Positions 4,949-60,237 are shown, counted from the stretch's first letter. The stretch is 64,000 nt of DNA from a candidate division WWE3 bacterium RIFCSPHIGHO2_01_FULL_40_23 (GCA_001772615.1 MEUZ01000003.1:182422-246421), one strand, 5' to 3'. Notes: generated by a model not told the origin, from the letters alone. Made by a program: numbers and translations.

Positions 4949-6535
4949 CTACTTTCTCACTAGGTATATTTTGTACCGATCTCTTCGTACAATAGAGTTT
5001 CCAGGCAGATCCACTGCATCATAAACGCTATACGGACTATTAATCTTTATGTATAGATCCGGTTTATGAGTGTTATATGAAATGTCATTACTTCCATACT
5101 TCAAGTAAAAATCAGAGATGCTTGGCTTCTCATTTGTATCATAAGTTTTGATGTCATTTATCAGCTTTAATTTATCAACTTCCGCCCTGATTTCTTTCCA
5201 GCCTCTTTTATACGTAAGCCCAAATACACCTCTTGTCATTTCTTTTCGTGCAACGCCTTCATACATTTTTCCAAAAACGTATGTTTTTTTCTTCCATGGA
5301 TATTCCCGATCTGTATCTATAAACGCAAAATAGTTAAAAGATGCAGATGAGATAATAAGAACACTCAAAACGGATGCAGCAGGAAGCGGAAACTCTCTAA
5401 AAAACTTATAAAACTCGGTTGAAATAATAATAAACAAAGGAATTAAAAAATTATAGATGTGAGTGAGGGGAAATTTAATAAAAACAAAGTAAGTAAAAAA
5501 TGATGTTAAAAGCCATATTTCCATTAAATTCTCCGATTTTAAGCCTTTTAACTTATACAAATCGTATAAGTAAAGAATAATAAATAAGGCCCAGGTAAAA
5601 ACCGAAAGGTTATAAACATAACTTTTATTAACATATGCTCTTGCCACAGTCAGTGCTAAAGCCAACGCAAAAAGTACAGTTCTCTTAACATCCAGTTTTT
5701 TACTAAATGTATTTATCCAAAGTAAAGAACCCATAACCATTATGACCAGAAATTCTTTTGAGTGATACAAAGAAAAGATAGATAAAGAAATAGATAGGGA
5801 ATTTTTGGTGTCACTGAATACTCTTTCAAACAGTAGAAAATTTAAAGTTTTGGAAAAGGCAGGGTGAAGAAAGAAACGAATGTAAAAGAGCATTGAAGTT
5901 ATAAAAACTGTGGAAATGTAAACAAATAAAGATTTTAACTTTCTTGCAATTAAAAGGCTGACAGTAGTTGGGATAATAAACGCAAGAGCATCGTAATGAA
6001 AAAGAAGTGCTGCCCCTGATACAAGACCGTTTAGTATGGGTATCTTTACGCTACTCTTGTTTTCACTTAACTGATTGCAAGTAAGTAGGATAGAAAGGCA
6101 CCCTAAAGCAAGAACAAAAGGCGGAAACTGCAAATACCTTGACATTGCAATAAGAAGTCCTGAAAGAGATATAAAGATCAGGGAAATAAGTGCCGATTTT
6201 TCTCCATAGACTCTTCTTGCCAGTAAGAATGCCACAATAACAAACACAATACCTATTACCGCATATGGAAACCTGTGTATAAGCTCAATATTGTTTAAGT
6301 TATTTACAAAAAAATTTACAAGATAAGTTACAACAAACTGTCCAGGGCCCTTCTTCTGCTCCACTAAAAAGTCAAAAAAGCTTTTTTTAGTAAACAAAAA
6401 CCCGAGGACATCTACTTCATCGCTCACGAATTCAGAATATCCAAGCTTAACAAATCTAAAAAATATGGCCGTCAAGAAGGCTAATCCAAAAAAAAGACCA
6501 TAGAACACTTTGTTCCATTTAATAACAGTTGCCAT
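4949..6535 (-). CDS. polytopic membrane glycosyltransferase of the GT-C fold (ArnT/PMT, GT39/GT83-like)
   Basis: More than 10 predicted TM helices. An acidic DE-containing first loop (FVSDEVDVLGF) follows TM1. A C-terminal soluble domain of about 150 aa is present. Confidence 0.45.
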   Translation of the reverse strand: MATVIKWNKVFYGLFFGLAFLTAIFFRFVKLGYSEFVSDEVDVLGFLFTKKSFFDFLVEQKKGPGQFVVTYLVNFFVNNLNNIELIHRFPYAVIGIVFVIVAFLLARRVYGEKSALISLIFISLSGLLIAMSRYLQFPPFVLALGCLSILLTCNQLSENKSSVKIPILNGLVSGAALLFHYDALAFIIPTTVSLLIARKLKSLFVYISTVFITSMLFYIRFFLHPAFSKTLNFLLFERVFSDTKNSLSISLSIFSLYHSKEFLVIMVMGSLLWINTFSKKLDVKRTVLFALALALTVARAYVNKSYVYNLSVFTWALFIILYLYDLYKLKGLKSENLMEIWLLTSFFTYFVFIKFPLTHIYNFLIPLFIIISTEFYKFFREFPLPAASVLSVLIISSASFNYFAFIDTDREYPWKKKTYVFGKMYEGVARKEMTRGVFGLTYKRGWKEIRAEVDKLKLINDIKTYDTNEKPSISDFYLKYGSNDISYNTHKPDLYIKINSPYSVYDAVDLPGNSIVRRDRYKIYLVRK

Positions 6536-9207: not shown

Positions 9208-10221
9208 ATGGAAAATTCTGAAGAAACTCCTGTAAAAGAAGTAAAAGAGGAAAAAAAGAAAAAGGGAAGCTTCCTTAAAAGTGTTTTTTCTTTCTTCTTA
9301 ACAATTGCGGTAATGGCGGGAAGCTATTACCTTTTTACAACGGTTTTTAAAAAAGAAAGAATAATACTGGTAAAAGAGTACGGAGAAGTTTTTTATAAAG
9401 AAGAAGATACATCCTACACACAGACCCTAACTGATGAAACGGAAATAAAAAATAAAACTTTCGTAAAGACTGAAGAGGGAGAGGCCCAGGTAACTCTTCC
9501 CGACAACTCGTTAATTTCACTTGATAAAAACACAGAAATTCAAATAAATTATGACAAAGACTCAACAACAATAAATCAGGTTATCGGAAATACCTGGAAC
9601 AGAATAGGAAAAACTCTTAAAAAAAGGGATTATTCGGTTTCAGCACCTTCAGCCCTCGCTACTGTGAGAGGCACTAAATACTGGGTGCAGGTTATAGACA
9701 TTAGCTACTCAAATGTGTATGTAATTGAAAACAAAGTGGAAACTAGCCAACTCCAAATTACTGATTCCATAAAAAGGGTCCTCTACACAACAACTGTTAA
9801 AAAAGGAGATTATGCAAAAGTCCCCGATCCTCTCACAGGAAAGCTTGAGGTATTTGAAATTCCGGATGAAATAAAAAATTCAGCCTGGTTCAGAAAAAAT
9901 ATAGGGATAGATAAAGAATTTAACAGGAGACAAAACGAAGATCCACTTAACATCCTTAAAAAGGTTTTTGTGATTAAGTTATCTCTTGCGGAAGGGCATA
10001 CAAACGAAGAGGTATGCGAGCAGGTTAAATACCCTGTGCTCATTGATATGTATTTGGACGTGCTTAAAGGAGTCGGCAAGCTTGATAGCGAAAAATATAC
10101 TTTCCTCAAAAGATATATGTCAGAAGTTAGCAGTAGTTGCAAAGATGGAAAATTAACTCAGGAAGAGATTAAAAGAATTGATAACATAACCTCAGGTTAT
10201 GACTTAGAAGACTTTGAATAA
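9208..10221 (+). CDS. membrane-anchored FecR-domain protein (anti-sigma / signal-transducer-like)
   Basis: N-terminal TM segment. The central segment KTFVKTEEGEAQVTLPDNSLISLDKNTEIQINYD...ATVRGTKYWVQV matches the FecR beta-rich pattern (T.eGea.v.LpDgS...GT.f.V). Confidence 0.45.
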   Translation: MENSEETPVKEVKEEKKKKGSFLKSVFSFFLTIAVMAGSYYLFTTVFKKERIILVKEYGEVFYKEEDTSYTQTLTDETEIKNKTFVKTEEGEAQVTLPDNSLISLDKNTEIQINYDKDSTTINQVIGNTWNRIGKTLKKRDYSVSAPSALATVRGTKYWVQVIDISYSNVYVIENKVETSQLQITDSIKRVLYTTTVKKGDYAKVPDPLTGKLEVFEIPDEIKNSAWFRKNIGIDKEFNRRQNEDPLNILKKVFVIKLSLAEGHTNEEVCEQVKYPVLIDMYLDVLKGVGKLDSEKYTFLKRYMSEVSSSCKDGKLTQEEIKRIDNITSGYDLEDFE

Positions 10222-10222
10222 A

Positions 10223-13200
10223 TCAGGAATTTTTCTTGTAGTAAATTACCCCTCCCACACCAAGTAGAAGCATTAACAAAAGAAGAAGCCACCATCTTAG
10301 TGAGAAGAGTAATCCTGGAGGCTCTGCTACAGGCTCCACTGCCGCCTGCACACCAAGGGTTTCTTCTTTCTGCTCTTCCTCTTTAACTTCCTCCTTTGGT
10401 TCTTCTGGTTTTTCCTCCTCGGGTGTCTCTATTACTTCGGGCGGTGTTACTGTAGTTGTTCCGGCAACTTGAGGGGCTTCCTCTTTGGGCGGGTCATGCT
10501 TGTCATTATTATCATCTTTGCTGTCTCTGTCAGGCGGGTTATCAGGTTCTGGAATAGAAATAGTTAAAGTGTCTGATGCAAAACTTGTTTCCACATTCCC
10601 TGCCTGATCGGTAGCCCTGGTTTCAAATGTGTAAGTGCCGGATGAAAGAGTGGGCGTGAAAGTAAAGTCTTCATTTGATTCATCAAAACTTCCGTCAGAT
10701 GCGATAGCTTGCACCCATGAACCTCCGTTTATTCTATATTCAACCTTAACTACATTCATCGCCGAATCGGAAGCTGAACCAGTATAAGTCGGGTTGGCTT
10801 TTGCTTCAGGATCAGGTGAATAAACATTCAGAAGCGAATTAGGTTCAGTTTGATCAACCCTTAAACTTGCAGAGGATTCAGGACTAAGATTTCCATTCGT
10901 AAAGAGAAGTAAACTGTCAAAACTTGTAAATATGGCAGCTATTTTAATCTCCGTAGCTAAGCTAAACGTAGAAAAACTTGGACTAAACCCCGTACTATCC
11001 TCCGCCCAGACAAAAACATTGTATAAACCCTCATTAAAATTGGTCGTAAATGTTGTTGCATTTCCTAAAGGTGTAGGCTCCACAGTCTCTGTCCCTTCAA
11101 CCCTGTACCAGTAATTGGAAATTCCCGAAAAAAGATCTGTTGAAGGGATAAAGGTCCAAAGCTGTGTTGTTAAATTGGTCGGATTTGTTGTGGTCGGTAC
11201 TCCAGGAGCAGATGGAACCTCACTATCTATAAAAAATGGACCCAAGTGAGCGGTAGAAGTCCAATTACCGGCATTATCCATAGTGGCTATATGGAAGTAG
11301 TTACTATTTCCATTTGGAAGAGAGGGGCTAGTCTCCTCATATAGATCGTCGGTTGTGTACTCTACGGATACAGGTCCTGTCATTGTGTCAGGCGAGGTAT
11401 TCCATTCAGTGTAAAAGCCAAAAACTCCCGAGCCTTCCACATCATCTCCCCCTTCCCATCCCACATCAACAGTGTTGTCAGAACTCCACGTTGACAGCGA
11501 GTGGCTTATTTCAAAAGGAAAGGGATCAATCGGAAGAGTTTTATCAAATAAAACAAAAGACTCATCGGTTGTACCTGTAACCTCGGGACCAGAAGTTTCA
11601 GTAAGATCGGAGTAATTGATAGAGAAAAATACAAGACCTTCCTGATCGGTATCTTTAAGGACATAAGTAGCGCTCCAGATATTTTTACCAAGATCTGAAA
11701 CAGTTACATCACTTTGGCCTTGTATGCTTACGGAAGGAGTTGAAAGGAGTGGTTCCGAAGCCATGAAAAGTAACGTGACAGTATCCGAAACCTTGGCAAC
11801 ATCTAAAAAATTAACATTATCAGAGAATATTGAAACATCCGTCAAAAAAGGCGGGCTGTTGATTGTAAAAACAGAGTCCGATATATCTGACACCGTATTG
11901 GTTCCATCGTTGACACTCACAATAACCTGAACCGTATCGGAATTCATAGCCGGGGCACTAAACGAGTAAAGACCGCTGTTGCCAAGACCTGAAATGATGG
12001 ATGTCGTTGTGCTTCCCCCATCGGTAGTGTAAAAAAGATCAACGGTTAAAATCTCCTGCTTAGCAGTAACGTCAGGATCAGAAGCCTCCCAAGATACATC
12101 AATGGTGTCACCTGCCTGATAAAATTCCCCTCCATTAGGCGAAACCACACTCACAGTTGGAGGCGTGCTGCTATAAGCGACTTGTACAGAAATATAGTCT
12201 ACAAATACGGTCTGTGAGTCCTTGGCAGGAGCTTCCCTTTTAACGGAATAAGCTACCCCGAAATCGGAAGAGTTAAGGATAGAAGGCGTTAAGGCCAAAC
12301 CCCAAAGGTCTGTGGATGAACCGTAAGAAGCAGTTGCATCAATGTTATTTGTGTATTCGGATCCGGCTGCCGTAACGGCTTTGTTGTCTCCTGCCTCTGC
12401 ACCCGATACCACAAGGCTTACGAACTCATCCCTCGTAGTATTATCCCTTGCAACACTGACAGTTCTTTCTATATTAACCTTGACACCCTCGATAACTGCG
12501 GTTGAAGGTATGTTTAAATTAAAGCCTGTGGCTACAAGATTTTCTGAAATATCATTGGTTGTAGGAAGTGCAACTGAAGCTTTGACATCATCGGATACAT
12601 AAACACTGACAACATTTGACCACTGAATTCCCGAACCAGAAACTGCTGAAACAGTAGGGCTGACAACAACAAACAAAGTAAAGTGATCAAGTCCGTTAAT
12701 TTCAACAACTTTTTCTTCTTTGACAGCTTCCACCCCTTCATCTACTCCCGTATAAGTTTCCCCGTCTTCCGAATACAAAACCTCAAGATCAGAAACAGGC
12801 ACCTCCTCCACTTTCCCATCTCCATTCTCATCAGGATAAGGAAGGGTCAGATTATACTCAAAACTCCCATTTTCCATATCCGAAGTTATCTCATATGCAG
12901 TATTGGAAACCGCGTTTAGTTCTGAAACCTCTGCATCAGAAAGATTAACTTCTTTTATTGTCAACTTCCCTGGGTTTGAAAGTTTAGTAAATTTAACCGA
13001 AACCTTTGTGTCTTTATATTTGTACTCCACCCCTTCCTTTACATCATCTTTTGTCTTTTCGGTCTTGGCATCAACACTCTCCCATAACTTCTCTTCTGAA
13101 TTGGGTTCTGTACTTTCATCAGTCAGAGCTTCGGGTTGATTCTGCACACTATTCTCTGTTTGTAGTGCACTATCTAAGGTTGTTTGATCTTCTGAAAGGC

Positions 13201-13624
13201 TTCCTTCAGGTACAACTTCTAAGGACCCTTCATTAGCCGCCGGTTCCGAATTAGCATCAGATTCAATTGACCCCACTGCCTGGGGAATTTCTTCAGGTTC
13301 AACTTCTTCACCAGTAACTTCCGTTTCACTCTGTGCATCACTTTCAGTAACCTCTGCATCAGAAGTTTCCTTCACTTGTTCCACACCTTCTTGAATAGAA
13401 GAATTTTCATCCTCTTTGACCTCTTCTTCACTACCGGAAGAAGTTTCACCGGATTCTTCTAAGTTTTCATCTTCAACTTTTGCTAAAGTTTCTTCGGTTT
13501 GAGAAGATTCTGGCACATCATCTGAAGCCAAAACGTAAGAAAGAGGATACAACGACTGAATTACCAGAAGTAACGAAAATAAAAGCGAAGAAGGTTTTAC
13601 CAGCCGCTTGACGAATTTGTTCAT
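10223..13624 (-). CDS. giant acidic cell-surface protein (1133 aa) with signal peptide, Ser/Thr/Glu-rich low-complexity N-terminal region, Ig/fibronectin-like repeats and a C-terminal Pro/Glu-rich linker, TM and basic tail anchor
   Basis: N-terminal signal-like segment MNKFVKRLVKPSSLLFSLLLVIQSLYPLSYVLA. Long uninterrupted ORF. C-terminus ...EPPGLLFSLRWWLLLLLMLLLGVGGVIYYKKNS. Confidence 0.7.
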   Translation of the reverse strand: MNKFVKRLVKPSSLLFSLLLVIQSLYPLSYVLASDDVPESSQTEETLAKVEDENLEESGETSSGSEEEVKEDENSSIQEGVEQVKETSDAEVTESDAQSETEVTGEEVEPEEIPQAVGSIESDANSEPAANEGSLEVVPEGSLSEDQTTLDSALQTENSVQNQPEALTDESTEPNSEEKLWESVDAKTEKTKDDVKEGVEYKYKDTKVSVKFTKLSNPGKLTIKEVNLSDAEVSELNAVSNTAYEITSDMENGSFEYNLTLPYPDENGDGKVEEVPVSDLEVLYSEDGETYTGVDEGVEAVKEEKVVEINGLDHFTLFVVVSPTVSAVSGSGIQWSNVVSVYVSDDVKASVALPTTNDISENLVATGFNLNIPSTAVIEGVKVNIERTVSVARDNTTRDEFVSLVVSGAEAGDNKAVTAAGSEYTNNIDATASYGSSTDLWGLALTPSILNSSDFGVAYSVKREAPAKDSQTVFVDYISVQVAYSSTPPTVSVVSPNGGEFYQAGDTIDVSWEASDPDVTAKQEILTVDLFYTTDGGSTTTSIISGLGNSGLYSFSAPAMNSDTVQVIVSVNDGTNTVSDISDSVFTINSPPFLTDVSIFSDNVNFLDVAKVSDTVTLLFMASEPLLSTPSVSIQGQSDVTVSDLGKNIWSATYVLKDTDQEGLVFFSINYSDLTETSGPEVTGTTDESFVLFDKTLPIDPFPFEISHSLSTWSSDNTVDVGWEGGDDVEGSGVFGFYTEWNTSPDTMTGPVSVEYTTDDLYEETSPSLPNGNSNYFHIATMDNAGNWTSTAHLGPFFIDSEVPSAPGVPTTTNPTNLTTQLWTFIPSTDLFSGISNYWYRVEGTETVEPTPLGNATTFTTNFNEGLYNVFVWAEDSTGFSPSFSTFSLATEIKIAAIFTSFDSLLLFTNGNLSPESSASLRVDQTEPNSLLNVYSPDPEAKANPTYTGSASDSAMNVVKVEYRINGGSWVQAIASDGSFDESNEDFTFTPTLSSGTYTFETRATDQAGNVETSFASDTLTISIPEPDNPPDRDSKDDNNDKHDPPKEEAPQVAGTTTVTPPEVIETPEEEKPEEPKEEVKEEEQKEETLGVQAAVEPVAEPPGLLFSLRWWLLLLLMLLLGVGGVIYYKKNS

Positions 13625-15778: not shown

Positions 15779-17071
15779 ATGAGGAAAATTCCTGCCCTAC
15801 TCCTTGTTGCCATTCTCATCTCCCTTTCATTTTTCATAAAATCTGAATCAAGAATTAAACCAGGCGTTAAAATTGGAAGTTTAAATCTCTCATACCTAAA
15901 AAAGGATGAAGCCCTGGAAAAGCTTTCAGTGCTTGAAACAAAACCTTTATATTTCAATCTGGTTAATAGAAGCATATCCCAGAATTACAATGAAATAGGT
16001 GTTTCGTTTGATAAAGAAACCGTTAATCAATTTATAAGGCAGTGTTATCTAAAATATCTTTGTCTTCCAAAACTCTCAAGAACGCCTCCTGTCAGCTCCC
16101 TAATAAAAATTGATAACAGTAAACTTGAGACTTTCTTAAACGAACTTAATAAAGACTTTCAAAAAAATGAGTTAGCCCCCGCCATCTCATTTGATGACGC
16201 AACATTTTATGCGCAGGCTCCTGATTCCAAATTTCAAATTGATAAAGAAAATATTAAAAAAACTCTCACACCAGAAGCCATCCAAAGCAAAGATCCCATC
16301 AGTATAAAAATAACGGAAATAAATCAGGGAAGTCTAAATCTTCAACATGAAGAAACGGATAAACTTATTGAAAAAATTACTTCCACGCCTCTTTTGATAA
16401 AGTACGGAAGAAATCCTGTTTACATTTATAAGAATGATCTCTCAAAATTTGTTGACACAAGGGTTGAGGATGGAAAAAAGATTGGCTTTTTAAACGAGAG
16501 CGCAATAAATGATTACCTTAATCTTTTAATTCAAAAATACAAAACAGACTTAGAATTAAATGACGACCATGCGGCAAAGTCCATAATGTACGCTTTATTG
16601 TACAGAGCAGGGGAGGAAAAACTTAACGAAGCAGTTATCCTTCCGCTTATAGGAAGGCCCAAAACCGACGGGAAAGTTCATGACAAATACCTTGAATTAA
16701 ATAAAAGCCAACAAAGGATTTTCACATTTGAGAACGGCGAGCTGAAAGAAACTTATGTGGTAGGGACCGGTCTCACAGCCGAAACTCCTTCGGGAAACTT
16801 TAGAATCCTGAAAAAACTAAGGATGTCTTTTTCATACTGGGGGAATTGGTATTTACCTTACATGATGCCGGTGGGGCAGTTTCCAAACGGAAACTATTTC
16901 GGAATCCATGAGATACCTTACCACCAGGACGCCTACGGAAACATCTACTCAAGAGACGAAAACACTATGGGAAGCCCAGCAACTGGAGGGTGCATTCAGA
17001 TGTACCGTGAAGATGTGAAAGAGCTATGGGATTGGGTTGACATTGGAACCCCGGTCATAATTACAGATTAA
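15779..17071 (+). CDS. secreted L,D-transpeptidase (YkuD domain) with N-terminal accessory domain
   Basis: Signal/TM N-terminus. The C-terminal motifs GTGLTAETPSGNFRI, GIHEIPY and TGGCIQM match the YkuD catalytic His and Cys motifs. Confidence 0.6.
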   Translation: MRKIPALLLVAILISLSFFIKSESRIKPGVKIGSLNLSYLKKDEALEKLSVLETKPLYFNLVNRSISQNYNEIGVSFDKETVNQFIRQCYLKYLCLPKLSRTPPVSSLIKIDNSKLETFLNELNKDFQKNELAPAISFDDATFYAQAPDSKFQIDKENIKKTLTPEAIQSKDPISIKITEINQGSLNLQHEETDKLIEKITSTPLLIKYGRNPVYIYKNDLSKFVDTRVEDGKKIGFLNESAINDYLNLLIQKYKTDLELNDDHAAKSIMYALLYRAGEEKLNEAVILPLIGRPKTDGKVHDKYLELNKSQQRIFTFENGELKETYVVGTGLTAETPSGNFRILKKLRMSFSYWGNWYLPYMMPVGQFPNGNYFGIHEIPYHQDAYGNIYSRDENTMGSPATGGCIQMYREDVKELWDWVDIGTPVIITD

Positions 17072-23128: not shown

Positions 23129-24127
23129 CTAAAAGTTAGCATAGTTGTCAGAAACGTATTTCAGAAGCCTTTTCGTATCCTCAAACCTATCATCACTTCC
23201 CATAACAACTATAATTATCTCGTCATCATGTTTTTGGTAAGCGTAAACCAAAACTTCTTTTGCTCTATCAGTTTTTCCCGTTTTTACACCTAAAGATCCG
23301 GGAATTTCAAAAAGAAGGCTGTTAGTTGATACGACATCATGAGAAATAGCACCATCTGATGACGTTAATGTAATATATTTAGTCCCAACAATTTTTCTAA
23401 ATACCCCGTTTTTAATGGCTTCCTCGGTCATCAGATAAAGGTCTCTTGCAGTTGATACATGGGAACTTTCATCAACGTCTAACCCTATGGGATTTGTAAA
23501 GTTTGTGTTAGTGAGTCCAATCTTTTGAGCCAAAATGTTCATTTTCCCGATAAATCCGCTTGAAGAAAATTTATGGGTTGAAAGTGTGCACGCAGCATCA
23601 CCAGCCGATGCCACAAGCATCCCATAAAGAAGAGATTCCACATTAATTTTTTCATCAGGTATTAGACCCATTTTTGCTCCCACAACTTCAGTACATACCT
23701 TGGGAACCAGAACTTCTTCCGAAAGATCATACTCATTAATAGTAAGAAGAGCGGTTAAAATCTTAGTCGTGGAGGCAGGGGGAAGCTTTAAATCAGGATT
23801 TTTCTCATATAAAAACTTTTTCATTTTTGTACTTGCTACAATTGCGGACTTGGAAGTAATATCCGGTTTGTCCAAGATCGGTTCCTTGACCTCCAATTTA
23901 TATGGATACGTACTTACTGATGCGGCACCAAGCACCGACTTCTTATCTGCATCCGATTTTTCCCTTTGAATCAAAAAGAATAGAAGAAAAATCACAAAAA
24001 CAGAGAAAGCAAATCTTGTGAAGTCAAAAATGGTTTTCCTGCTTATAAGAAATGTCTTAACTTTAAGATATTTCCCTTTTGTCCCTTTTAATTTAGAATC
24101 TTTTCTTTTATTTTTGTTTTTTTTCAT
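23129..24127 (-). CDS. D-alanyl-D-alanine carboxypeptidase (S11 peptidase, PBP5/DacA-like)
   Basis: N-terminal TM, active-site SxxK as ASTTK, conserved LYGMLVASAGDAA region. Confidence 0.65.
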   Translation of the reverse strand: MKKNKNKRKDSKLKGTKGKYLKVKTFLISRKTIFDFTRFAFSVFVIFLLFFLIQREKSDADKKSVLGAASVSTYPYKLEVKEPILDKPDITSKSAIVASTKMKKFLYEKNPDLKLPPASTTKILTALLTINEYDLSEEVLVPKVCTEVVGAKMGLIPDEKINVESLLYGMLVASAGDAACTLSTHKFSSSGFIGKMNILAQKIGLTNTNFTNPIGLDVDESSHVSTARDLYLMTEEAIKNGVFRKIVGTKYITLTSSDGAISHDVVSTNSLLFEIPGSLGVKTGKTDRAKEVLVYAYQKHDDEIIIVVMGSDDRFEDTKRLLKYVSDNYANF

Positions 24128-39009: not shown

Positions 39010-39104
39010 ATATTACAATCTACATTATAACATCTATTTATTCTTATTAAAAGGTATTAAACGCGGTAGACGCAGAGTATTTTGCCCACAACTGGTAGAA
39101 TAAT

Positions 39105-39432
39105 ACGGCAGGGCACACAAGCGGTTACCCGCCTACCGGCGGGAGGAAAGTCCAGACAGCATAGAGCAAGGGGTTGGAACGTAAGTTCCGACTGGCAACA
39201 GCTGGTACCGAGCTTTTGAAAAGAAGTCCGGACGGAAGGCGAATCGACGTCCTCCGAGATCCACAGAGACGAGCTTCCCCTAAGTCTTCGGATAAGGGGT
39301 AAGAGTGAAACGCGGAAATCCCACCCGCTGCAATCCACGATGTTACCGTTTAAGCCTGCTCGGCAAGGTACAAAGATGGAGCATAGAGAGATGCCGCATA
39401 AACAGAATCTGGCTTATGGATGCCCTGCACTT
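39105..39432 (+). ncRNA. rnpB: RNase P RNA (bacterial type, compact)
   Basis: P1 pairing GCAGGGCA (39108-39115) with TGCCCTGC (39421-39428). P3 hairpin CCCGCC-tacc-GGCGGG. P4 5' strand GGGAGGAAAGTCCAGAC. P4 3' strand ACAGAATCTGGCTTATGG. Confidence 0.8.
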
Positions 39433-50722: not shown

Positions 50723-51115
50723 CTATATCTTTACCGAATTGATCTTCAGCCAATTTGACGTCTCCTTAATCGCACTTCTCTTCTTTATAATATCCGTTAC
50801 CAGGTCATAGAATTTATTATCCCTTGCCCTAATCTCCCATCCATTAAGGTGGAGGAAAATAAAAACGGAGTAAACTGCCGTTCTTTTATTACCATCTACG
50901 AATGGGTGGTTTAATATTAGTGAGTGGATTAATGATGAAGCTTTATCAAAAATTGATTGATAAAGAAATTTACCTCCAAAAGAAGATTTAGGCCTCTGAA
51001 CCGAAGATTCCAGCAACGCAAGGGCCCTTATACCATCTGCTCCTCCATACAGTTCCAAAGATAACTCGTGCAAAAACAGAATTTCTTCCAAAGTAAGAAA
51101 CCTTATTCTAGACAT
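50723..51115 (-). CDS. doc: Doc (death-on-curing) Fic-family toxin
   Basis: Degenerate Fic motif HPFVDGNKR characteristic of Doc; 130 aa. Confidence 0.8.
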   Translation of the reverse strand: MSRIRFLTLEEILFLHELSLELYGGADGIRALALLESSVQRPKSSFGGKFLYQSIFDKASSLIHSLILNHPFVDGNKRTAVYSVFIFLHLNGWEIRARDNKFYDLVTDIIKKRSAIKETSNWLKINSVKI

Positions 51116-52420: not shown

Positions 52421-53038
52421 ATGAAGCTAACTGAACAAGAAAAAATAACAATCAAAACGTACGATAAAATCGCAGCTGAATGGAGCAAAAAACATCATAT
52501 ACATGATTACTGGAAAGAGGAATTAAAGCTATTTAAGAAATTTCTACCTATAGGAAAAATAATTGATATTGGTTGCGGAGGTGGCAGAGATGCAAAACCT
52601 TTGTCAAATCTAGGCTATAAGTACCTAGGAACAGATATATCAACAGGTTTACTAAAAGAGGCTAAGAAAAATAATCCAGGTATTAAGTTCATATATAAGA
52701 ATTTATATAAACCGAGCTTTAAAAGTAATACATTTGATGGTTTTTGGGCATCTGCAATATTTTTACATATCCCAAAAGACAGAATTAACCTGATATTACA
52801 AAATATAAGAAATTGGATTAAACAAGGTGGGGTAGGTTTTATATCCGTTAAGGAAGGCGGTGGGGAGGTATTAGATAATAGTGACATAGAAGGACCAGTA
52901 AGATTTTGGTCGTACTATAAACTAAGTGAATTCCGAAAATTACTTATGAGTAATAAATTTAAGATTTTAAAAAATTACCGTAAAAAAGTCATTGAGAGTA
53001 CTATTTGGTTAATTTATTTCGTTGAAGTTACAAAATAG
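52421..53038 (+). CDS. class I SAM-dependent methyltransferase
   Basis: IIDIGCGGGRDAKPL motif I; LGTDIS motif II. Confidence 0.6.
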   Translation: MKLTEQEKITIKTYDKIAAEWSKKHHIHDYWKEELKLFKKFLPIGKIIDIGCGGGRDAKPLSNLGYKYLGTDISTGLLKEAKKNNPGIKFIYKNLYKPSFKSNTFDGFWASAIFLHIPKDRINLILQNIRNWIKQGGVGFISVKEGGGEVLDNSDIEGPVRFWSYYKLSEFRKLLMSNKFKILKNYRKKVIESTIWLIYFVEVTK

Positions 53039-54674
53039 CTCAAAACAACCTGTCCCCCGCCGGATGACGATCAAGCAGTTACTACATCAAACTTTTTTTA
53101 TCTTATGCTTACTTACAGCCCTAGCCGGCTTTTTAAGGCTTCGCAACATTTCGGCTTTCAAACTTTATCCTGACTCTTATCAAAGCCTCATTGTTGCAAG
53201 AAACATCAGAGACTTTGGAAACGTTTCAGCAACTTTGGGAGAAGGCGGGATAGTTGAACCGCAGTTCATCGCATGGAGCAGGCCCGGTTACCCTCTTCTA
53301 ATCAATCTTCTAATGCCCCTGGTTCACAACGATGCTTTGTCCGCACAGATAGTCACATTTTTAGCAGGGCTCCTGATGATTCCAGCCGCATATCTTTTTA
53401 TATCAACCCTATACAATTCAAAAAAATCAGGCCTCACTGCCGCACTCCTAACCGCCCTTTTGTTTAACCTAACGGTCTGGGGCGGCTTTATACTTACAGA
53501 AACTACAGGAATCCTTTTTTTAATCCTCTTTTTGTACAGCCTTTTTAAATCCTTTAAATCCGAAACATCACTCGCTAACCCGAAAGATTATTTGACAGGA
53601 TTCCTTTTTGCCGCCGCAGTGATGACACGTTACGAATACATAATTCTTATTATCCCAATCATTTTTATTACCTTTAGCAAAAGCCAAAAGCCCGTTACCA
53701 GGCTCTTCAATATTCTCGTCTTTTCCTTTTTCACAGTATCGGTTGTTGCCGGCCTTCTTTTCCCGCTAGATAACATCTTACCCCCAATCAAAGAACAGAT
53801 GTCATACCCCTTGTACATAGCTTTAGGCATTCTTGGGTTTACATTAATCATTGGTATTCTAAATAAATCAATTCCACAGGAAATAAAGCAAAAAGTTTTT
53901 AGAGTACTTCGAGAATCCGCACAAAAAGCACCGATCCTTATAGCAATAACTCTGGCAATCCTTTACCTAGCAAATAGATCGGGGCTCCTGGTACTTTCAG
54001 GAATTTGGGAATTTGCCAAAACCGACTTGCTTTTAACGCTTGCATTCCTTATAGGTTCACGCCAAATGACAAAAGAGAAAAATCCGGATATTCCACTGAT
54101 AATCTTTACACTAGCCTCAATAACTTTTCTTGGGTTTATTTACTACAATGTTAACCCCTTGGCCCAAAGATATTTCACCCACCTTTTGCCATTTCTATTA
54201 ATACCTGCCTCCAAAGCTACGGAAAACTTAAAAAGCAAGGCTCTACTTACAATCCTAATCCTGGCCGCAATCCTTCAAACAGGCATCACATTTAACGGGG
54301 CGAAAAACTGGCAAAATGGAGATTGGCTTATGGAAAGTTACGAAGAAAAATCGGCCAAAATACTTAGCCAGAAAGTTAAAGACAAAAACACAATAATCGT
54401 AACCTCTTTTCCAGCCGCTTATTTTTACTTTACCAACCTAACTACCCAGGGCGTCACCGATTCTCCTCCCTACATTTACTTTCAAACAAACAACAGACCG
54501 ATTTTGATAGTAGAAGACATGGCGATGCGAGACGTTTATCCAAACTTCACAAATTTTTTACACAAGGACCTGAAAGACAAAAAAGTGGCTGAATACTTAG
54601 TTGGTAAAACCTACCATTACAGATTCAACGACCTAAATGAAGATAGACCTGTAGTTCTATACAAATATAACTAA
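53022..54674 (+). CDS. polytopic membrane protein, probable GT-C fold glycosyltransferase (ArnT/PMT-like)
   Basis: About 13 TM helices with a periplasmic first loop (PDSYQSLIVARNIRDFG) and a C-terminal soluble domain; overlaps the upstream MTase by 17 nt. Confidence 0.4.
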   Translation: MKLQNSSKQPVPRRMTIKQLLHQTFFILCLLTALAGFLRLRNISAFKLYPDSYQSLIVARNIRDFGNVSATLGEGGIVEPQFIAWSRPGYPLLINLLMPLVHNDALSAQIVTFLAGLLMIPAAYLFISTLYNSKKSGLTAALLTALLFNLTVWGGFILTETTGILFLILFLYSLFKSFKSETSLANPKDYLTGFLFAAAVMTRYEYIILIIPIIFITFSKSQKPVTRLFNILVFSFFTVSVVAGLLFPLDNILPPIKEQMSYPLYIALGILGFTLIIGILNKSIPQEIKQKVFRVLRESAQKAPILIAITLAILYLANRSGLLVLSGIWEFAKTDLLLTLAFLIGSRQMTKEKNPDIPLIIFTLASITFLGFIYYNVNPLAQRYFTHLLPFLLIPASKATENLKSKALLTILILAAILQTGITFNGAKNWQNGDWLMESYEEKSAKILSQKVKDKNTIIVTSFPAAYFYFTNLTTQGVTDSPPYIYFQTNNRPILIVEDMAMRDVYPNFTNFLHKDLKDKKVAEYLVGKTYHYRFNDLNEDRPVVLYKYN

Positions 54675-54747
54675 CAAAAAGTTGTTTTTGCCAACTTGAC
54701 AGTGTTAGAATATAGGCTTATCTGGGTATTTTAAACGGACAGGCACA

Positions 54748-55692
54748 ATGAAATTAATAGTACAAATACCCTGCTACAACGAGGAAAAAACACTCCCTCT
54801 TGTTCTTTCCACGATCCCTAAAAGCATACAGGGTATATCTGAAATTGAAACTTTAGTAATAGATGACGGATCTTCAGACAAAACATCAGAAATCGCAAGA
54901 AATCTGGGAGTAAATCATATCGTAAGACACAAACAAAATAAAGGCTTGGCGGCAGCCTTCGCGGCCGGCATCAACACCGCTTTAAAACTTGGCGCGGATA
55001 TCATAGTAAATACAGACGGAGACAACCAATACCCCCAACAAGAGATTCCAAGACTAATAAAACCAATTTTGGACGGCACTCACGATATGGTAATAGCGGA
55101 TAGACAAGTCACAAAGGTAAAGGAATTTAGCCCGATTAAAAAACTTTTGCAGATATGGGGAAGCAGCCTGGTTAGAGCCCTTTCGGGAACCAAAGTACCC
55201 GATGCCCCGAGCGGCTTTCGGGCTTTCTCAAAAGAAGCGGCGATGCAGTTAAACATAGTTACCGATTTTAGTTATGTAATTGAAACTGTGGTTCAGGCAG
55301 GCAGGAAAAGGATTGCAACAACACATGTACAAGTTGTAACAAATCCAAAAACCCGTGAATCAAGATTATTTAAAAGTATTTTTGAGCACATTAAAAGATC
55401 GGCTGCCGCTGTCCTAAGAAGTTACGCGATGTATACACCGTTTAGAATCTTTCTTGTGATGGGAGTTGTTGTACTTGCAATCGGTGCAATCCCTTATTTA
55501 TGGTTTGGAGTTCAATCAGCTCTTATGGGAGAGCCGCTTGGCGGGCATGTCCAATCACTTATCTTCGGAGCCGTATTTATAATAATGGGTTTTATGTTCA
55601 TTGTGATTGGAATCATCGCAGACCTTCTGGCTATTAATAGAAGGTTGCTGGAAGACGCTCTCTACCGCCTTAAGCAGATGGAGTTGAAATGA
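54748..55692 (+). CDS. GT2 polyprenyl-phosphate sugar synthase (Dpm1/ArnC/GtrB-like) with C-terminal TM anchor
   Basis: IPCYNEE, DDGSSDKT and DGDNQ (DXD) motifs; two C-terminal TM helices as in GtrB/ArnC. Confidence 0.7.
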   Translation: MKLIVQIPCYNEEKTLPLVLSTIPKSIQGISEIETLVIDDGSSDKTSEIARNLGVNHIVRHKQNKGLAAAFAAGINTALKLGADIIVNTDGDNQYPQQEIPRLIKPILDGTHDMVIADRQVTKVKEFSPIKKLLQIWGSSLVRALSGTKVPDAPSGFRAFSKEAAMQLNIVTDFSYVIETVVQAGRKRIATTHVQVVTNPKTRESRLFKSIFEHIKRSAAAVLRSYAMYTPFRIFLVMGVVVLAIGAIPYLWFGVQSALMGEPLGGHVQSLIFGAVFIIMGFMFIVIGIIADLLAINRRLLEDALYRLKQMELK

Positions 55693-56759
55693 GTGAGAAA
55701 TCAAAAATAAAGCTGTTATTCATTACCAGAAAATATCCCCCTTCAGTTGGAGGGATGGAAAAAGTAAGCTATTGCCTTGGCGAAGAGTTAAAAAAGAAGG
55801 TTGATACAAAGATAATAGCGTGGGGGAAGTCTCAAAAATGGCTACCTTACTTTCTGCCGAAAGCCTTCTTTGAGGCATTGATAATAATTTATAGAGATGG
55901 GATCACAAACATTCACTTGGGTGATGGTTTATTAGCACCACTTGGGCTCCTTCTTAAAGCGATTACTGGAAAGAAAGTTACAGTAACCATCCACGGTTTA
56001 GACATTACTTATAAAAACTCTCTTTACCAGCTTGTAGTTCCCTGGTGTGTAAGTAAGCTGGATAAAGTAATTTGTGTCAGTGAAGCGACTTTAAAAGAAT
56101 GTGTTAAGCGTGGAATTCCAAAAGAAATGAGCACAGTTATCCACTGGGGAATTTATCCCGAAGAATACAAAATCAGTGCAACCCGAGCGGATCTGGAAAA
56201 TATTGCAGGCAGGGATTTAGATGGCAAGAAAGTAATAATAACGGTAGGAAGACTAGTCAAAAGAAAGGGGGTCTATTGGTTCATTGATAATGTATTACCA
56301 AAACTGGATCATAATTTTGTGTACCTGATCATAGGAGATGGACCTGAAAGAGCGAGGATAGAAGATTTGATAAAAACCTTAAACCTTAAAGATAGGGCGT
56401 TACTCCTGGGCAGAGTTTCCGACCATGATTTGAAAATAATTTACAACACCGCTGACATCTTCGTCATGCCAAATATTGAAGTAGAAGGAGATATTGAGGG
56501 GTTTGGGATAGTGGCAATGGAAGCAGCATCTACCGGTATGTTGATTGTGGCCTCTTATGTAGATGGTATGAAAGATTTACTGAACGAAAAAGTGGGTATA
56601 CCAGTTAAGGAAAGGGTAGATTTCGCTCCAAGAATAAAAAAAGCTCTCAAGGACAGAGAGCAAAATTCTAACATAAGCAAAAACGTAGCTAGTTACATAC
56701 AAGACAACTTTAGTTGGACAAGTATTAGAGAAGAATACATCAAAGCGGCAGTTCGATAG
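55689..56759 (+). CDS. GT4 family glycosyltransferase (Glycos_transf_1)
   Basis: EGFGIVAMEAASTGMLIV (E-X7-E region) and GT-B architecture. Confidence 0.7.
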   Translation: MSEKSKIKLLFITRKYPPSVGGMEKVSYCLGEELKKKVDTKIIAWGKSQKWLPYFLPKAFFEALIIIYRDGITNIHLGDGLLAPLGLLLKAITGKKVTVTIHGLDITYKNSLYQLVVPWCVSKLDKVICVSEATLKECVKRGIPKEMSTVIHWGIYPEEYKISATRADLENIAGRDLDGKKVIITVGRLVKRKGVYWFIDNVLPKLDHNFVYLIIGDGPERARIEDLIKTLNLKDRALLLGRVSDHDLKIIYNTADIFVMPNIEVEGDIEGFGIVAMEAASTGMLIVASYVDGMKDLLNEKVGIPVKERVDFAPRIKKALKDREQNSNISKNVASYIQDNFSWTSIREEYIKAAVR

Positions 56760-56761
56760 AT

Positions 56762-57610
56762 ATGGAAGAGAAAACAAAAACTACAATAGAACAAGTAGAG
56801 CGCTACTGGTCAAAACAAAGCGAAATGTATCTTAATACAGACGAGAGGGGGTTTGGAGCAGTTATATATTCTGGGATGCCTATTTGGTTCAACAGCTTCT
56901 TTAACCATTACCAGCAAAAAGCTTTTATGACTCTAACTGAAGGAATTAACTTCAGCGGTCTTTCAGCATTAGACGTTGGGTCAGGCGTTGGAAGGTGGTC
57001 CCACATTCTGTATAAAAAGGGTTGCAAGGTTATTGGTATTGATTTCGAGAAAAGTAGGTTACAAAAAGCCAAAAAGAACCCCAATTTGAAGAACATCACC
57101 TTTAAAAACATGTCAGTGGTTAATTTAGAATTCGAAGATAATATTTTTGATTTTACTAATTCAATCACCGTACTACAACACATACCACATGAGAACAAGA
57201 GCACAGCTATAAAAGAAGTATGTAGAGCTACTAAAAAAGGTGGTTATATATTAATAATTGAGTTAATTGATCTTTTCGACGATGCGCCACATGTTTTTCC
57301 CCTATCAGACAAAGGATGGATAGACATATTCGCAAACAACGGCTGTGAACTAATAAAAAAAGTTGGGTGTGAATTTTCTCCACTTTTGAGGATACTAAGA
57401 TACATTAGATACGTTCTAACAAAGAAAAAGAATATAGATAAGAGTACAGGAAGAATAACTTTGAGCAAATTTGAGTTACTTATTATGAGAGTAGTTATCC
57501 TGTTATCTTATCCCATAGAAGAAGTTTGCGTCAGTATTACACCGGCTAAGTACGCCAGACATGGAGGCTATCTTTTTAAAAAGTTGAGCAAACGGAAGAA
57601 GGAATTCTAA
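56762..57610 (+). CDS. class I SAM-dependent methyltransferase
   Basis: ALDVGSGVGRWS motif I; VIGIDFE motif II. Confidence 0.65.
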   Translation: MEEKTKTTIEQVERYWSKQSEMYLNTDERGFGAVIYSGMPIWFNSFFNHYQQKAFMTLTEGINFSGLSALDVGSGVGRWSHILYKKGCKVIGIDFEKSRLQKAKKNPNLKNITFKNMSVVNLEFEDNIFDFTNSITVLQHIPHENKSTAIKEVCRATKKGGYILIIELIDLFDDAPHVFPLSDKGWIDIFANNGCELIKKVGCEFSPLLRILRYIRYVLTKKKNIDKSTGRITLSKFELLIMRVVILLSYPIEEVCVSITPAKYARHGGYLFKKLSKRKKEF

Positions 57611-57663
57611 CAAAAGGTAGATGAAGCGAGATTAGATTTTACAGATAGATACTTGCAAATATT

Positions 57664-58503
57664 ATGTCCAAGGTCCAAATCACAACAGTTATTACAAGGT
57701 ACTCCGAGCCCGATCATATAGTGAGAGACTGTCTAAACTCATTAAAATTGCAGCGTAATGTCAAAGGAGACGTACTCTTCTTAGACCAAAAGGAATCCAG
57801 AGAAATTAAGGATTGGCTAAAAACACAAAATACAGAAAATGTAAGGTTTCAGTATATAAGTATTGAACCGAGGTCACTGTCGTACGCAAGAAATCAGGGC
57901 ACCAAACTAGCAAGTGGTAACTTAGTCGCATTCAGTGATCCAGATTGTGTCCTTAAGCCTAACTGGATGGAAGAACTCATAACAACTTTTAGAAAATTTA
58001 ATGCTTCAATAGTAGGAACGAAAATCACTCCTGTTTGGGGTGCGGAAACTAGCTGGTATCACAAATCAAAAGTGATCCAGGAATTCTACGCTTTGCTCGA
58101 TTTATCCCAGAATTACAAATTGGTAAGTAAGGTTATAGGAGCAAGTTTCGCCCTGGATAAGAATAAAATTAAATCCTCTCCATATTTTGATGAAGGGCTT
58201 GGAAGGAAAGAGGGGATGTTTCTAGGTGGTGAAGAAACAGACTTATGTAAAAGGGTTGTGACTAGTGGGGGGATCGTAGCTTATACTGCAAATACCCAAG
58301 CTCTACATAAAATTCCCAAAGAAAGAATGAACCTCAAGTGGTTGTTTAAGATGGCTTATTTTGGCGGTATAACTAGGGCGATGAGGGGTGGTAAAGTCGA
58401 AACCTTTACCACAAGTTATAACCTTAGAGATAAGGCTGCCATAAGCCTCGTATTACCCTTCTTTGCTTATGGTTATTTTAAAACTAAAATCAAAATCAGC
58501 TGA
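57664..58503 (+). CDS. GT2 family glycosyltransferase
   Basis: VITRYSEP, LVAFSDPDCV (DXD) and rhamnosyl/galactosyl-transferase-like layout. Confidence 0.6.
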   Translation: MSKVQITTVITRYSEPDHIVRDCLNSLKLQRNVKGDVLFLDQKESREIKDWLKTQNTENVRFQYISIEPRSLSYARNQGTKLASGNLVAFSDPDCVLKPNWMEELITTFRKFNASIVGTKITPVWGAETSWYHKSKVIQEFYALLDLSQNYKLVSKVIGASFALDKNKIKSSPYFDEGLGRKEGMFLGGEETDLCKRVVTSGGIVAYTANTQALHKIPKERMNLKWLFKMAYFGGITRAMRGGKVETFTTSYNLRDKAAISLVLPFFAYGYFKTKIKIS

Positions 58504-58545
58504 TTTTTAGAAATCAATTTGATGACCAAACCATAGTATAAGCAA

Positions 58546-60186: not shown

Positions 60187-60237
60187 TAAAAATTTAACAG
60201 TATAACCGACAGGGAATTTTAGATATATAAATTTGTT

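Follow-up and report, generated by a model that had tools for sequence, protein, structure and literature searches.

A giant acidic protein of 1133 amino acids (aa) is encoded on the minus strand at positions 10223-13624 of a 64,000-nucleotide (nt) stretch of DNA (the window) from candidate division WWE3 bacterium RIFCSPHIGHO2_01_FULL_40_23, an ultra-small candidate-division bacterium within the Candidate Phyla Radiation (CPR)/Patescibacteria. The protein is most likely exported by Sec, anchored in the membrane by its C-terminus (type I) and built as an adhesin-like stalk. Towards its membrane-distal end it has a conserved domain (N-dom) that, in predicted structure, resembles the GAIN/ZU5 module by which animal adhesion receptors cleave themselves. 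We favour a reading in which the transmembrane (TM) anchor is permanent and N-dom is autoproteolytic, and put the probability that both hold at about 0.55. An earlier account of this DNA, made without database searches (the sequence-only reading), had dealt with the opposite end of the protein, proposing a C-terminal sorting or anchor signal that lacks LPXTG; N-dom and its invariant His-Phe-Thr (HFT), absent from that account, are the most informative feature.

The open reading frame (ORF) was correctly placed by the sequence-only reading, and its product is 100% identical to the NCBI entry 'hypothetical protein A2716_04065 [candidate division WWE3 bacterium RIFCSPHIGHO2_01_FULL_40_23]'. Since this identical WWE3 protein has been deposited, and was found on nine contigs (the longest 435 kb) in our database search, the ORF is a real gene of a CPR/Patescibacteria organism. 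Composition analysis gave a mass of 122 kDa, a pI of 4.05, a net charge of -142 (196 D+E vs 54 K+R), 22% Ser+Thr and no Cys. Much of the earlier outline of the protein was confirmed: a signal peptide, strong acidity, a Ser/Thr-rich and beta-rich body, a Pro/Glu-rich linker followed by a Leu-rich hydrophobic segment and a KKNS tail, and the absence of LPXTG, which together support a giant, acidic protein that is exported by Sec to the cell surface and anchored there by a hydrophobic C-terminal segment. The acidic low-complexity region also exists, but it had been given as 300 aa and measures 161 aa (aa 34-194), with a conserved folded domain beginning at aa 195.

That domain, N-dom, defines a family. 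A first search recovered 28 relatives, mostly proteins of 1400-2000 aa from CPR metagenomes, and the region common to them and the query is a ~125-aa segment near the N-terminus that corresponds to query aa 195-324. When a profile of N-dom was run against 1.84 billion representative proteins, 808 clusters were matched (773 at E<=1e-10), always with a single copy near the N-terminus that starts within the first ~250 residues; among the matches listed, the start lies at residue 12-251 in 150/150 relatives. Scanning one genome per species gave 71 loci, with titles nearly all from Microgenomates, Parcubacteria, Saccharibacteria, Dojkabacteria and similar groups. Members range in length from ~1000 to 2900 aa and vary in domain content, and at the spot equivalent to aa 34-194 the homologues have low-complexity spacers that are non-homologous in sequence. 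No Pfam or NCBIfam model covers N-dom, and a PDB sequence search with it returned no match. The protein is a member of a Patescibacteria-specific family. Near-CPR-identical family genes also occur in ~18 TPA bins titled 'uncultured Gammaproteobacteria' or 'Pseudomonadales' (e.g. L003, L004, L009, L022 and L052; near-identical pairs include L022 with L023 and L052 with P0010); judging from these genes, the titles look wrong and should be treated as unreliable. A supposed conserved signal-peptide motif, YP[FL]SYV[YL]A, was rejected, as it was found in 4/167 members only.

The N-dom alignment has six invariant residues, of which three are consecutive and form H-F-T. Among 236 unique N-doms, the His is present in 236/236, the Phe in 231/236 (Met in 3, Leu in 2) and the Thr in 235/236 (Cys in 1), and across the family L-[DN] stands before the motif and [IV]-F-[VI]-[VI] after it. 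An AlphaFold2 (AF2) model of N-dom (predicted local distance difference test score, pLDDT, 88.8) shows a twisted beta-sandwich of the ZU5/GAIN subdomain B type, with HFT at model residues 120-122 in the predicted turn between the last two strands (residues 112-118 and 123-127). The comparison with known folds, whose values are listed without a stated scale, gave 11.0, 10.9 and 10.3 for ankyrin ZU5, 9.6 for UNC5B ZU5, 8.8 for CD97 GAIN, 8.6 for CARD8 FIIND, 7.4 for BAI3 GAIN, 7.1 and 6.6 for NLRP1 FIIND, 6.8 down to 4.7 for the GAIN domains of CELSR1, GPR126, GPR56, GPR97 and GPR110, and 4.5 and 4.3 for Nup98/Nup116. All of these belong to the classic folds that cleave themselves in cis, which Aravind's group brought together as the ZU5 superfamily (PMC3482391).

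In GAIN domains the scissile bond lies in the turn before the last strand (PMC3321182), and the PIDD and Nup98 sites are HF↓S, where the arrow marks the bond (PMC3210808). The MAIN domain of Bacillus subtilis YfkN also self-cleaves, at an HF↓S site mapped by Edman degradation, and its fragments stay associated on the cell surface (May 2026 preprint by Brogan & Rudner, 10.64898/2026.05.12.724683). Because HFT is invariant and sits in the turn before the last strand, as in GAIN, PIDD/Nup98 and YfkN, we predict cleavage at F315↓T316, and we lean towards an autoproteolytic N-dom. A different explanation is that N-dom is a mere ligand-binding sandwich at the tip of an adhesin, with His-Phe-Thr kept for folding or binding and the protein left uncleaved. 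Adhesins do place their binding domains membrane-distally, and N-dom has no sequence-level homology with the characterised autoproteolytic families. However, the near-invariance of H and T in 236 diverse sequences, with Cys as the sole swap of the nucleophile and Met/Leu as the sole swaps at position -1, is the HX(S/T/C) autoprocessing pattern, and the motif lies in a turn before a hydrophobic final strand, like the sites of GAIN and MAIN (PMC3321182; 10.64898/2026.05.12.724683). We regard an uncleaved, purely binding N-dom as doubtful.

The closest comparison for a cleaved N-dom is with MAIN proteins such as YfkN. Both are large, Sec-exported and surface-anchored proteins with Ig, FN3 or cadherin-like modules, the query having a predicted signal peptide and a predicted C-terminal anchor, and both have a GAIN-B-like beta-sandwich with a conserved HX(S/T) in a beta-turn (HFS in YfkN, HFT here). 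They differ in lineage, in the nucleophile (a predicted Thr here), in the anchor (here a TM helix) and in that cleavage has been shown for YfkN and is predicted here from sequence and model. Within the wider ZU5 superfamily, the shared feature is H-[FL]-[ST] followed by a hydrophobic strand, so that HFT[IV]F[VI][VI] resembles both the HF↓S of PIDD/Nup98 and the HL↓T of GAIN; unlike GAIN, the query has neither subdomain A nor the GPS disulfides, and its domain would be extracellular on a C-terminally anchored stalk rather than part of a seven-transmembrane receptor or an RHS toxin.

In virtually all MAIN proteins the module lies between the ectodomains and the anchor, adjoining the anchor (10.64898/2026.05.12.724683), whereas here it is membrane-distal, at the N-terminus behind an acidic spacer, which is the reverse of every described MAIN or adhesion GPCR (G-protein-coupled receptor) arrangement. 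By analogy, the N-terminal location has precedent in ZU5-superfamily autopeptidases, noted in 2012 to occupy the N-terminus in large surface proteins and toxins of bacteria (PMC3482391). Nevertheless, this inverted order (aa 195-324 of 1133) weighs against self-cleavage, as do several other points. The predicted cut would free only ~280 aa, comprising the spacer and the sandwich. Foldseek matches of N-dom to known folds have weak E-values (best 0.013); the Pfam models ZU5, GPS, GAIN, FIIND and Nucleoporin2 gave no match for 17 N-dom members at E<=10; and neither the NCBIfam YfkN model nor PDB sequences matched it, so that the link to ZU5/GAIN rests on a predicted structure and a three-residue motif. 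The signal peptide was assigned by inspection of the sequence and hydropathy only (peak at aa 13-33).

The ORF, its family, the predicted fold, the near-constant motif, the tail statistics and the gene neighbourhoods are direct results; from them we infer export, the membrane topology, self-cleavage, loss of the cap and an adhesive function. The parts follow one another as a signal peptide, a ~160-aa acidic disordered spacer, the ZU5/GAIN-B-like sandwich, ~700 aa of Ig/FN3-like sandwiches, a Pro/Glu-rich spacer with V[LA]GxxT-type motifs, a Trp/Leu-rich TM helix and the KKNS tail. The C-terminal helix and basic tail would stop translocation and retain the protein in the membrane. At N-dom, His314 would activate Thr316 for an N-to-O acyl shift, and hydrolysis of the resulting ester would cut the chain at F315↓T316, which is the chemistry of GAIN, ZU5/PIDD, Nup98 and bacterial MAIN domains. 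The last strand, TLFVVV, would then keep the N-terminal cap (acidic spacer and sandwich) attached to the stalk's tip by non-covalent contacts, and force or a ligand could detach it.

CPR/Patescibacteria are mostly obligate episymbionts, and to our knowledge their attachment to and detachment from host cells are largely uncharted; giant 'hypothetical' surface proteins are obvious candidates for both. If N-dom self-cleaves, the mechanism of animal adhesion GPCRs, shown in Bacillota only this year, would reach the tips of hundreds of CPR surface proteins. The inverted arrangement would then suggest a force-sensitive cap rather than ectodomain release, an idea that a one-residue mutation, T316A, could test. 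In the literature searched, we found no description of a C-terminally anchored stalk with a self-cleaved cap, and neither the YfkN MAIN preprint (10.64898/2026.05.12.724683) nor the ZU5 paper (PMC3482391) mentions CPR.

At the other end of the protein, the sequence-only reading had likened the tail to tripartite sorting signals, which we could not support for any known class. A hydrophobic segment (aa 1110-1129) is indeed followed by a positively charged extreme C-terminus, KKNS. However, the last 150 aa contain neither L[PA]xTG nor any [IL]PxxG, and with the last 35 aa the LPXTG model TIGR01167 reached 11.6 bits against a cut-off of 15.9, aligning only its positions 12-32 (TM helix and tail). 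PEP-CTERM and the other NCBIfam C-terminal sorting models gave no match at E<=10 with the last 35, 51 or 87 aa. Tblastn with six CPR sortases found no sortase in the window, and no Sortase, Exosortase, archaeosortase or Rhomboid Pfam family was matched in the 84 kb made up of the window and 10 kb of DNA flanking it at either end. A sortase profile run against 5.8 billion proteins gave 1208 matches, and none of the best 120 of the 1208 could be assigned to the query's genome. The suggested shared motif, PPGLLFSL, was rejected: no homologue conserves it, and it is missing from the other ORFs of the 84 kb, where only trivial LLFSL strings in hydrophobic segments occur. The stretch before the TM helix shows no conservation among homologues. 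The known non-LPXTG classes (PEP-CTERM/exosortase, GlyGly-CTERM/rhombosortase and PGF-CTERM/archaeosortase), which the tail recalls only in its generic three-part look (a stretch with Pro, then a TM helix, then a basic tail), are effectively refuted by the model searches and the 84 kb covered, and we think it unlikely that this protein has a sorting signal of any known class.

Even so, the tail is not a random one. Among the 167 long members of the family, ~115 have one TM helix and a K/R tail at the C-terminus, 36 are multi-pass and ~7 are true LPXTG proteins; the tail of one of the latter, L060, passes both TIGR01167 and PF00746 (21.3 and 26.6 bits). We made an unbiased count of tripeptides in the 80 aa before the TM helix of 103 dereplicated members. 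VLG occurred 113 times, against 4.0 expected from linker composition and a maximum of 12 in 1000 shuffles, and was 18-fold enriched over the protein bodies. It is present in 74/103 tails, or 92/103 as the relaxed V[LQAKEF]G, with a peak 10-60 aa before the TM helix, and has the consensus P-A-x-G-F-x-x-[EGQ]-V-L-G-[AE]-x-T. The TM helix of relatives usually opens with [KRQN]-W-x-W, and the query shares the Trp-rich start. Because the same tail type is also found on proteins of CPR loci that have no N-dom, the V[LA]GxxT tail is lineage-wide and not specific to the family; we found no description of it, or of the GAIPVxG element described below, in the literature searched. The query has V[LAQKE]Gxx[TS]-type motifs 10-60 aa before its TM helix and K/R tail (Table 1). 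The multi-pass members (36/167; e.g. L027, L031, L036, L040, L046, L049 and P0022) end in a domain of the form '...LP.ILL..Q....E....K...C[YF]....WF.....[IV]EE' and keep VLG-type motifs upstream, a third anchoring mode in the family.

Sortases are common in CPR (PMC6851277, PMC7143001), and some relatives of the query are closely linked to them. Sortase-domain genes (PF04203, ~85 bits) lie directly downstream of family genes, often overlapping them, in L019, L055, L060, L062, L065, L066 and L069, where LPXTG is missing from most of the family proteins. The only cut-off that these sortases reach is that of the generic TIGR01076, and they score 40-74 bits with the class A-F models against cut-offs of 140-166; by these scores the clade, which has the signature TLTLMTCWPxGT, appears to be unclassified and to lie outside classes A-F. 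In six reverse look-ups starting from sortases, a giant upstream gene overlapped the sortase start in all six; its product ended in [EVS]V[LA]G[EA]xT followed by a TM helix and a basic tail, and had no LPXTG. A metagenome scan from the sortases then added 80 further loci, 60 of which remained after dereplication with an upstream ORF. In 58/60, the upstream gene is on the same strand, ends -5 to +116 nt relative to the sortase start and encodes a TM helix and K/R tail; 39 of the 58 tails have the strict motif and the rest [VIAT]LG[EAST], with LPXTG in the last 60 aa of 0/58. N-dom is carried by the upstream giant gene in at least 13 sortase loci, and is usual where its N-terminus is in view. 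(The loci behind these observations are L084-L163, L072-L083 and the seven named above.)

A second element, G-A-[IL]-[PA]-[V]-x-G (e.g. GAIPVTG, GALPVSG or GAIAVTG), is present in 51/67 sortase-adjacent tails, against 2.7 expected and a shuffle maximum of 10. It lies upstream of the VLG motifs, 46-72 aa (median 57) before the TM helix, and looks in sequence like an LPXTG-type pentapeptide unusually far from the membrane. Family tails without an adjacent sortase have it in 5/103 cases (strict) or 13/103 (relaxed), and the query has none. The succession of GA[IL]P[V]xG, ~20 aa, VLGExT, ~25 aa, TM helix and K/R tail is probably an extended, undescribed sortase signal. If so, predictions of sorted proteins in CPR that are based on LPXTG would miss the very substrates whose genes immediately precede those of the lineage's sortases. 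VLG itself was rejected as the site of sortase cleavage, because its place relative to the LPXTG-like element changes from relative to relative: it precedes LPATG in L060, L062 and P0019 but follows GAIPVxG elsewhere. Candidate roles are a glycosylation site at the conserved Thr, a contact with the wall or a docking site for an enzyme.

At many sortase loci, the gene directly upstream encodes a protein of ~320-355 aa with the same extended tail (L116, L125, L128, L130, L132, L134, L139, L140, L143, L151, L154, L158-L160 and L163), and in L060 (15903-16931) and L062 (14339-15283) such a protein is encoded between the giant gene and the sortase gene. This smaller protein may serve as a dedicated subunit for the base or the anchor.

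How far does this extend to the query? Its tail has the distal half of the extended signal, V[LA]GxxT 10-60 aa before a Trp-rich TM helix and K/R tail, and scores 28.7 bits with a profile of sortase-adjacent tails, against 13.6 +/- 3.9 for linker-shuffled controls, 0/500 of which reach that score. The alignment includes the TM helix and tail, and leaves profile positions 1-23, the GAIPVxG part, unmatched. One could propose from this that an enzyme whose gene lies in another part of the WWE3 genome, whether a sortase or not, cleaves at an unrecognised signal near V[LA]GxxT and links the protein to the wall, the TM helix being transient. The family is the preferred upstream neighbour of the unclassified sortase clade, in the 58/60 loci and with N-dom in those noted above; and a different WWE3 genome, which is complete, is reported to encode a sortase along with proteins predicted from LPXTG to be sorted (PMC3812714). 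These points, together with the resemblance of the query tail to sortase-coupled tails, which makes processing at an unrecognised site conceivable, weigh against a permanent anchor, as does the fact that the search for sorting enzymes covered 84 kb, on a contig that is at least 416 kb long.

Against processing, however, GA[IL]P[V]xG tracks adjacency to a sortase and is absent from the query, VLG is an unlikely cleavage site and the 84 kb contain no sortase. In particular, the query gene has no sortase gene adjoining or overlapping it at the 3' end, where there is instead a convergent FecR-domain gene. We consider processing at an unrecognised signal unlikely. Because the query lacks the LPXTG-like GAIPVxG pentapeptide of its sortase-coupled relatives, a plain membrane anchor that no known sorting enzyme would remove is most likely, and we hold it probable that the protein is permanently TM-anchored. 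For its C-terminus the best reading is a plain anchor next to a juxtamembrane module typical of the lineage, in which the sortase-correlated element is missing.

The same distinction separates the query from the LPXTG/MSCRAMM adhesins of Gram-positive bacteria, with which it shares a signal peptide, tip domain, beta-sandwich stalk, Pro-rich spacer, hydrophobic segment and basic tail, and to which some family members, being true LPXTG proteins (e.g. L060), come closer. The query has no LPXTG-like pentapeptide, fails TIGR01167 and has no sortase in the 84 kb, and its anchor is probably permanent. The stalk itself was modelled as part of aa 190-600, where AF2 gave three beta-sandwiches (pLDDT 80.9). 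The second of these (aa 325-487) is common to the closest homologues, P0002 and P0003. The third (aa 488-592) is of an Ig-like type that recurs many times in unrelated surface proteins, with repeats in P0004, P0006 and P0009. Segmental homology to P0005, P0007, P0008 and P0003 covers aa 593-1016 (all by BLASTP), with a Pfam Big_13 match at aa 942-1016 (32.1 bits, cut-off 27). A structural assignment of the body had been suggested, and Foldseek with the three-domain model did return Ig/FN3-type sandwiches; the PDB matches were generic Ig/FN3 adhesin arrays only (E ~1e-4), including the Epf adhesin, GbpA, Hoc and contactins. There are no DNA tandem repeats within the gene.

A very acidic, Ser/Thr-rich protein of beta-sandwiches whose Pro/Glu-rich spacer lies close to the membrane and whose TM anchor is C-terminal could, instead of being an adhesin, be the subunit of an S-layer-like coat, akin to archaeal S-layer glycoproteins, which are acidic, glycosylated and anchored at the C-terminus. 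Archaeal S-layer glycoproteins are in general acidic, with a Ser/Thr-rich beta-sandwich body and a spacer beside the C-terminal TM segment. Glycosyltransferases are numerous in WWE3 genomes, for which a glycosylated S-layer has been suggested (PMC3812714); two PMT_2-type glycosyltransferase genes are in the window (Table 1). Unlike the archaeal proteins, the query has no PGF-CTERM match and no archaeosortase in the 84 kb, and both lattice and glycosylation would be hypothetical here. It has no SLH or other S-layer domain, and the variation of the family in length (~1000 to 2900 aa) and domains is typical of adhesins and not of a lattice subunit. An S-layer subunit is thus improbable, and we retain the adhesin-like stalk.

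Taken at its widest, the proposal would be that ~800 clusters of giant Patescibacteria surface proteins carry at the membrane-distal tip an undescribed, sequence-divergent branch of GAIN/ZU5/MAIN domains, the self-cleavage of which gives a detachable acidic cap, with host contact exposing a tethered hydrophobic strand; and that the lineage also has its own extended sorting signal, served by a sortase clade outside classes A-F whose gene overlaps that of the substrate. We offer this whole tentatively, at a little short of even odds.

Table 1. Features of the giant surface protein and other genes in the window (an arrow marks a predicted cleavage site)
Feature	Residues (aa)	Window position	Strand	Basis or remark
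Giant acidic surface protein gene		10223..13624	minus	complete ORF, ATG start, 1133 aa + stop
Predicted Sec signal peptide	1-33	13526..13624	minus	basic n-region MNKFVKRLVKP, hydrophobic core, VLA↓SD
Acidic low-complexity spacer	34-194	13043..13525	minus	composition; 39 E, 13 D, 23 S, 14 T per 161 aa; net charge -45
N-dom, predicted ZU5/GAIN-B-like beta-sandwich	195-324	12653..13042	minus	family-defining
H314-F315-T316, predicted autoproteolytic site	314-316	12677..12685	minus	codons CAC TTT ACT; predicted scissile bond F315↓T316
Second beta-sandwich domain	325-487	12164..12652	minus	BLASTP coverage; AF2 pLDDT ~75-85
Ig-like domain 'SPNGGE...W...SD'	488-592	11849..12163	minus	BLASTP; AF2 pLDDT ~95
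Further Ig/FN3-like stalk beta-sandwiches	593-1016	10577..11848	minus	Big_13, segmental homology
Pro/Glu-rich acidic spacer	1017-1109	10298..10576	minus	15 P, 19 E in 93 aa; net charge -19
QVAGTTT, V[LA]GxxT tail motif instance	1052-1058	10451..10471	minus	first VLG position of tail profile
ETLGVQA, degenerate second VLG-type motif	1088-1094	10343..10363	minus	second VLG position; 16 aa before TM helix
C-terminal TM helix RWWLLLLLMLLLGVGGVIYY	1110-1129	10238..10297	minus	hydropathy >2; Leu-rich, Trp-rich start
KKNS basic tail, predicted cytoplasmic, + stop codon	1130-1133	10223..10237	minus	
FecR-domain gene		9208..10221	plus	PF04773, 46.5 bits
PMT_2-family gene (GT-C, dolichyl-phosphate-mannose-protein mannosyltransferase-like)		4949-6535	minus	~3.7 kb from 3' end of giant gene
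L,D-transpeptidase		15779-17071		cell-envelope gene
D-Ala-D-Ala carboxypeptidase		23129-24127		cell-envelope gene
Divergent bacterial class A RNase P RNA		39108-39432	plus	full model, 71.4 bits, E = 1e-21
MazE-like antitoxin + Fic-domain gene pair		50723-51115 + adjoining small ORF	minus	Pfam; next to recA, just before tRNA-Pro
tRNA-Pro		51502		only tRNA in window
PMT_2-family gene (GT-C)		53022-54674	plus	
Glycoconjugate cluster		53022-63095	plus	PMT_2, GT2, GT4, methyltransferase, GT2, 546-aa membrane protein, Wzx/MurJ-like flippase, 477-aa protein (no Pfam match)

In the gene neighbourhood, the FecR-domain gene, which had been called divergent, is convergent with the giant gene, their stop codons being 1 nt apart, and the suggested association is not conserved: no homologue of the FecR-domain protein is found at the 71 related loci. 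As partners, the FecR-domain and SurA_N-like neighbours were both rejected, with adjacency at 0/71 and 1/71 related loci, respectively. The glycosyltransferase cluster beyond the tRNA does exist (53 to 63 kb), but lies ~40 kb from the giant gene. The PMT_2 gene at 4949-6535 is much closer. Either PMT_2 product could carry out a putative O-glycosylation of Ser/Thr-rich surface proteins, and the giant protein may, hypothetically, be a substrate of such machinery.

The recurrent neighbours of family genes are the sortase and a CAP-domain (PF00188) membrane protein (19 loci), neither of which was found in the window. The CAP/SCP-domain protein is ~300 aa long and encoded on the same strand (e.g. 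L069 8476-9408, L066 8296-9198 and L166 14174-15064), and also occurs next to P0002. SecDF (by Pfam) is among the cell-envelope genes of the window.

The RNase P RNA scores below the Rfam gathering score of 100 and sits in a GC-richer gap with a spurious 93-aa ORF (39057-39338, minus strand). The pentapeptide LLFSL occurs twice in the giant protein, in the signal peptide (SSLLFSLLLV, window position 13585) and before the TM helix (PPGLLFSLRWW, window position 10321), both on the minus strand; given the Leu/Ser/Phe-rich hydrophobic segments, the double occurrence is probably due to chance.

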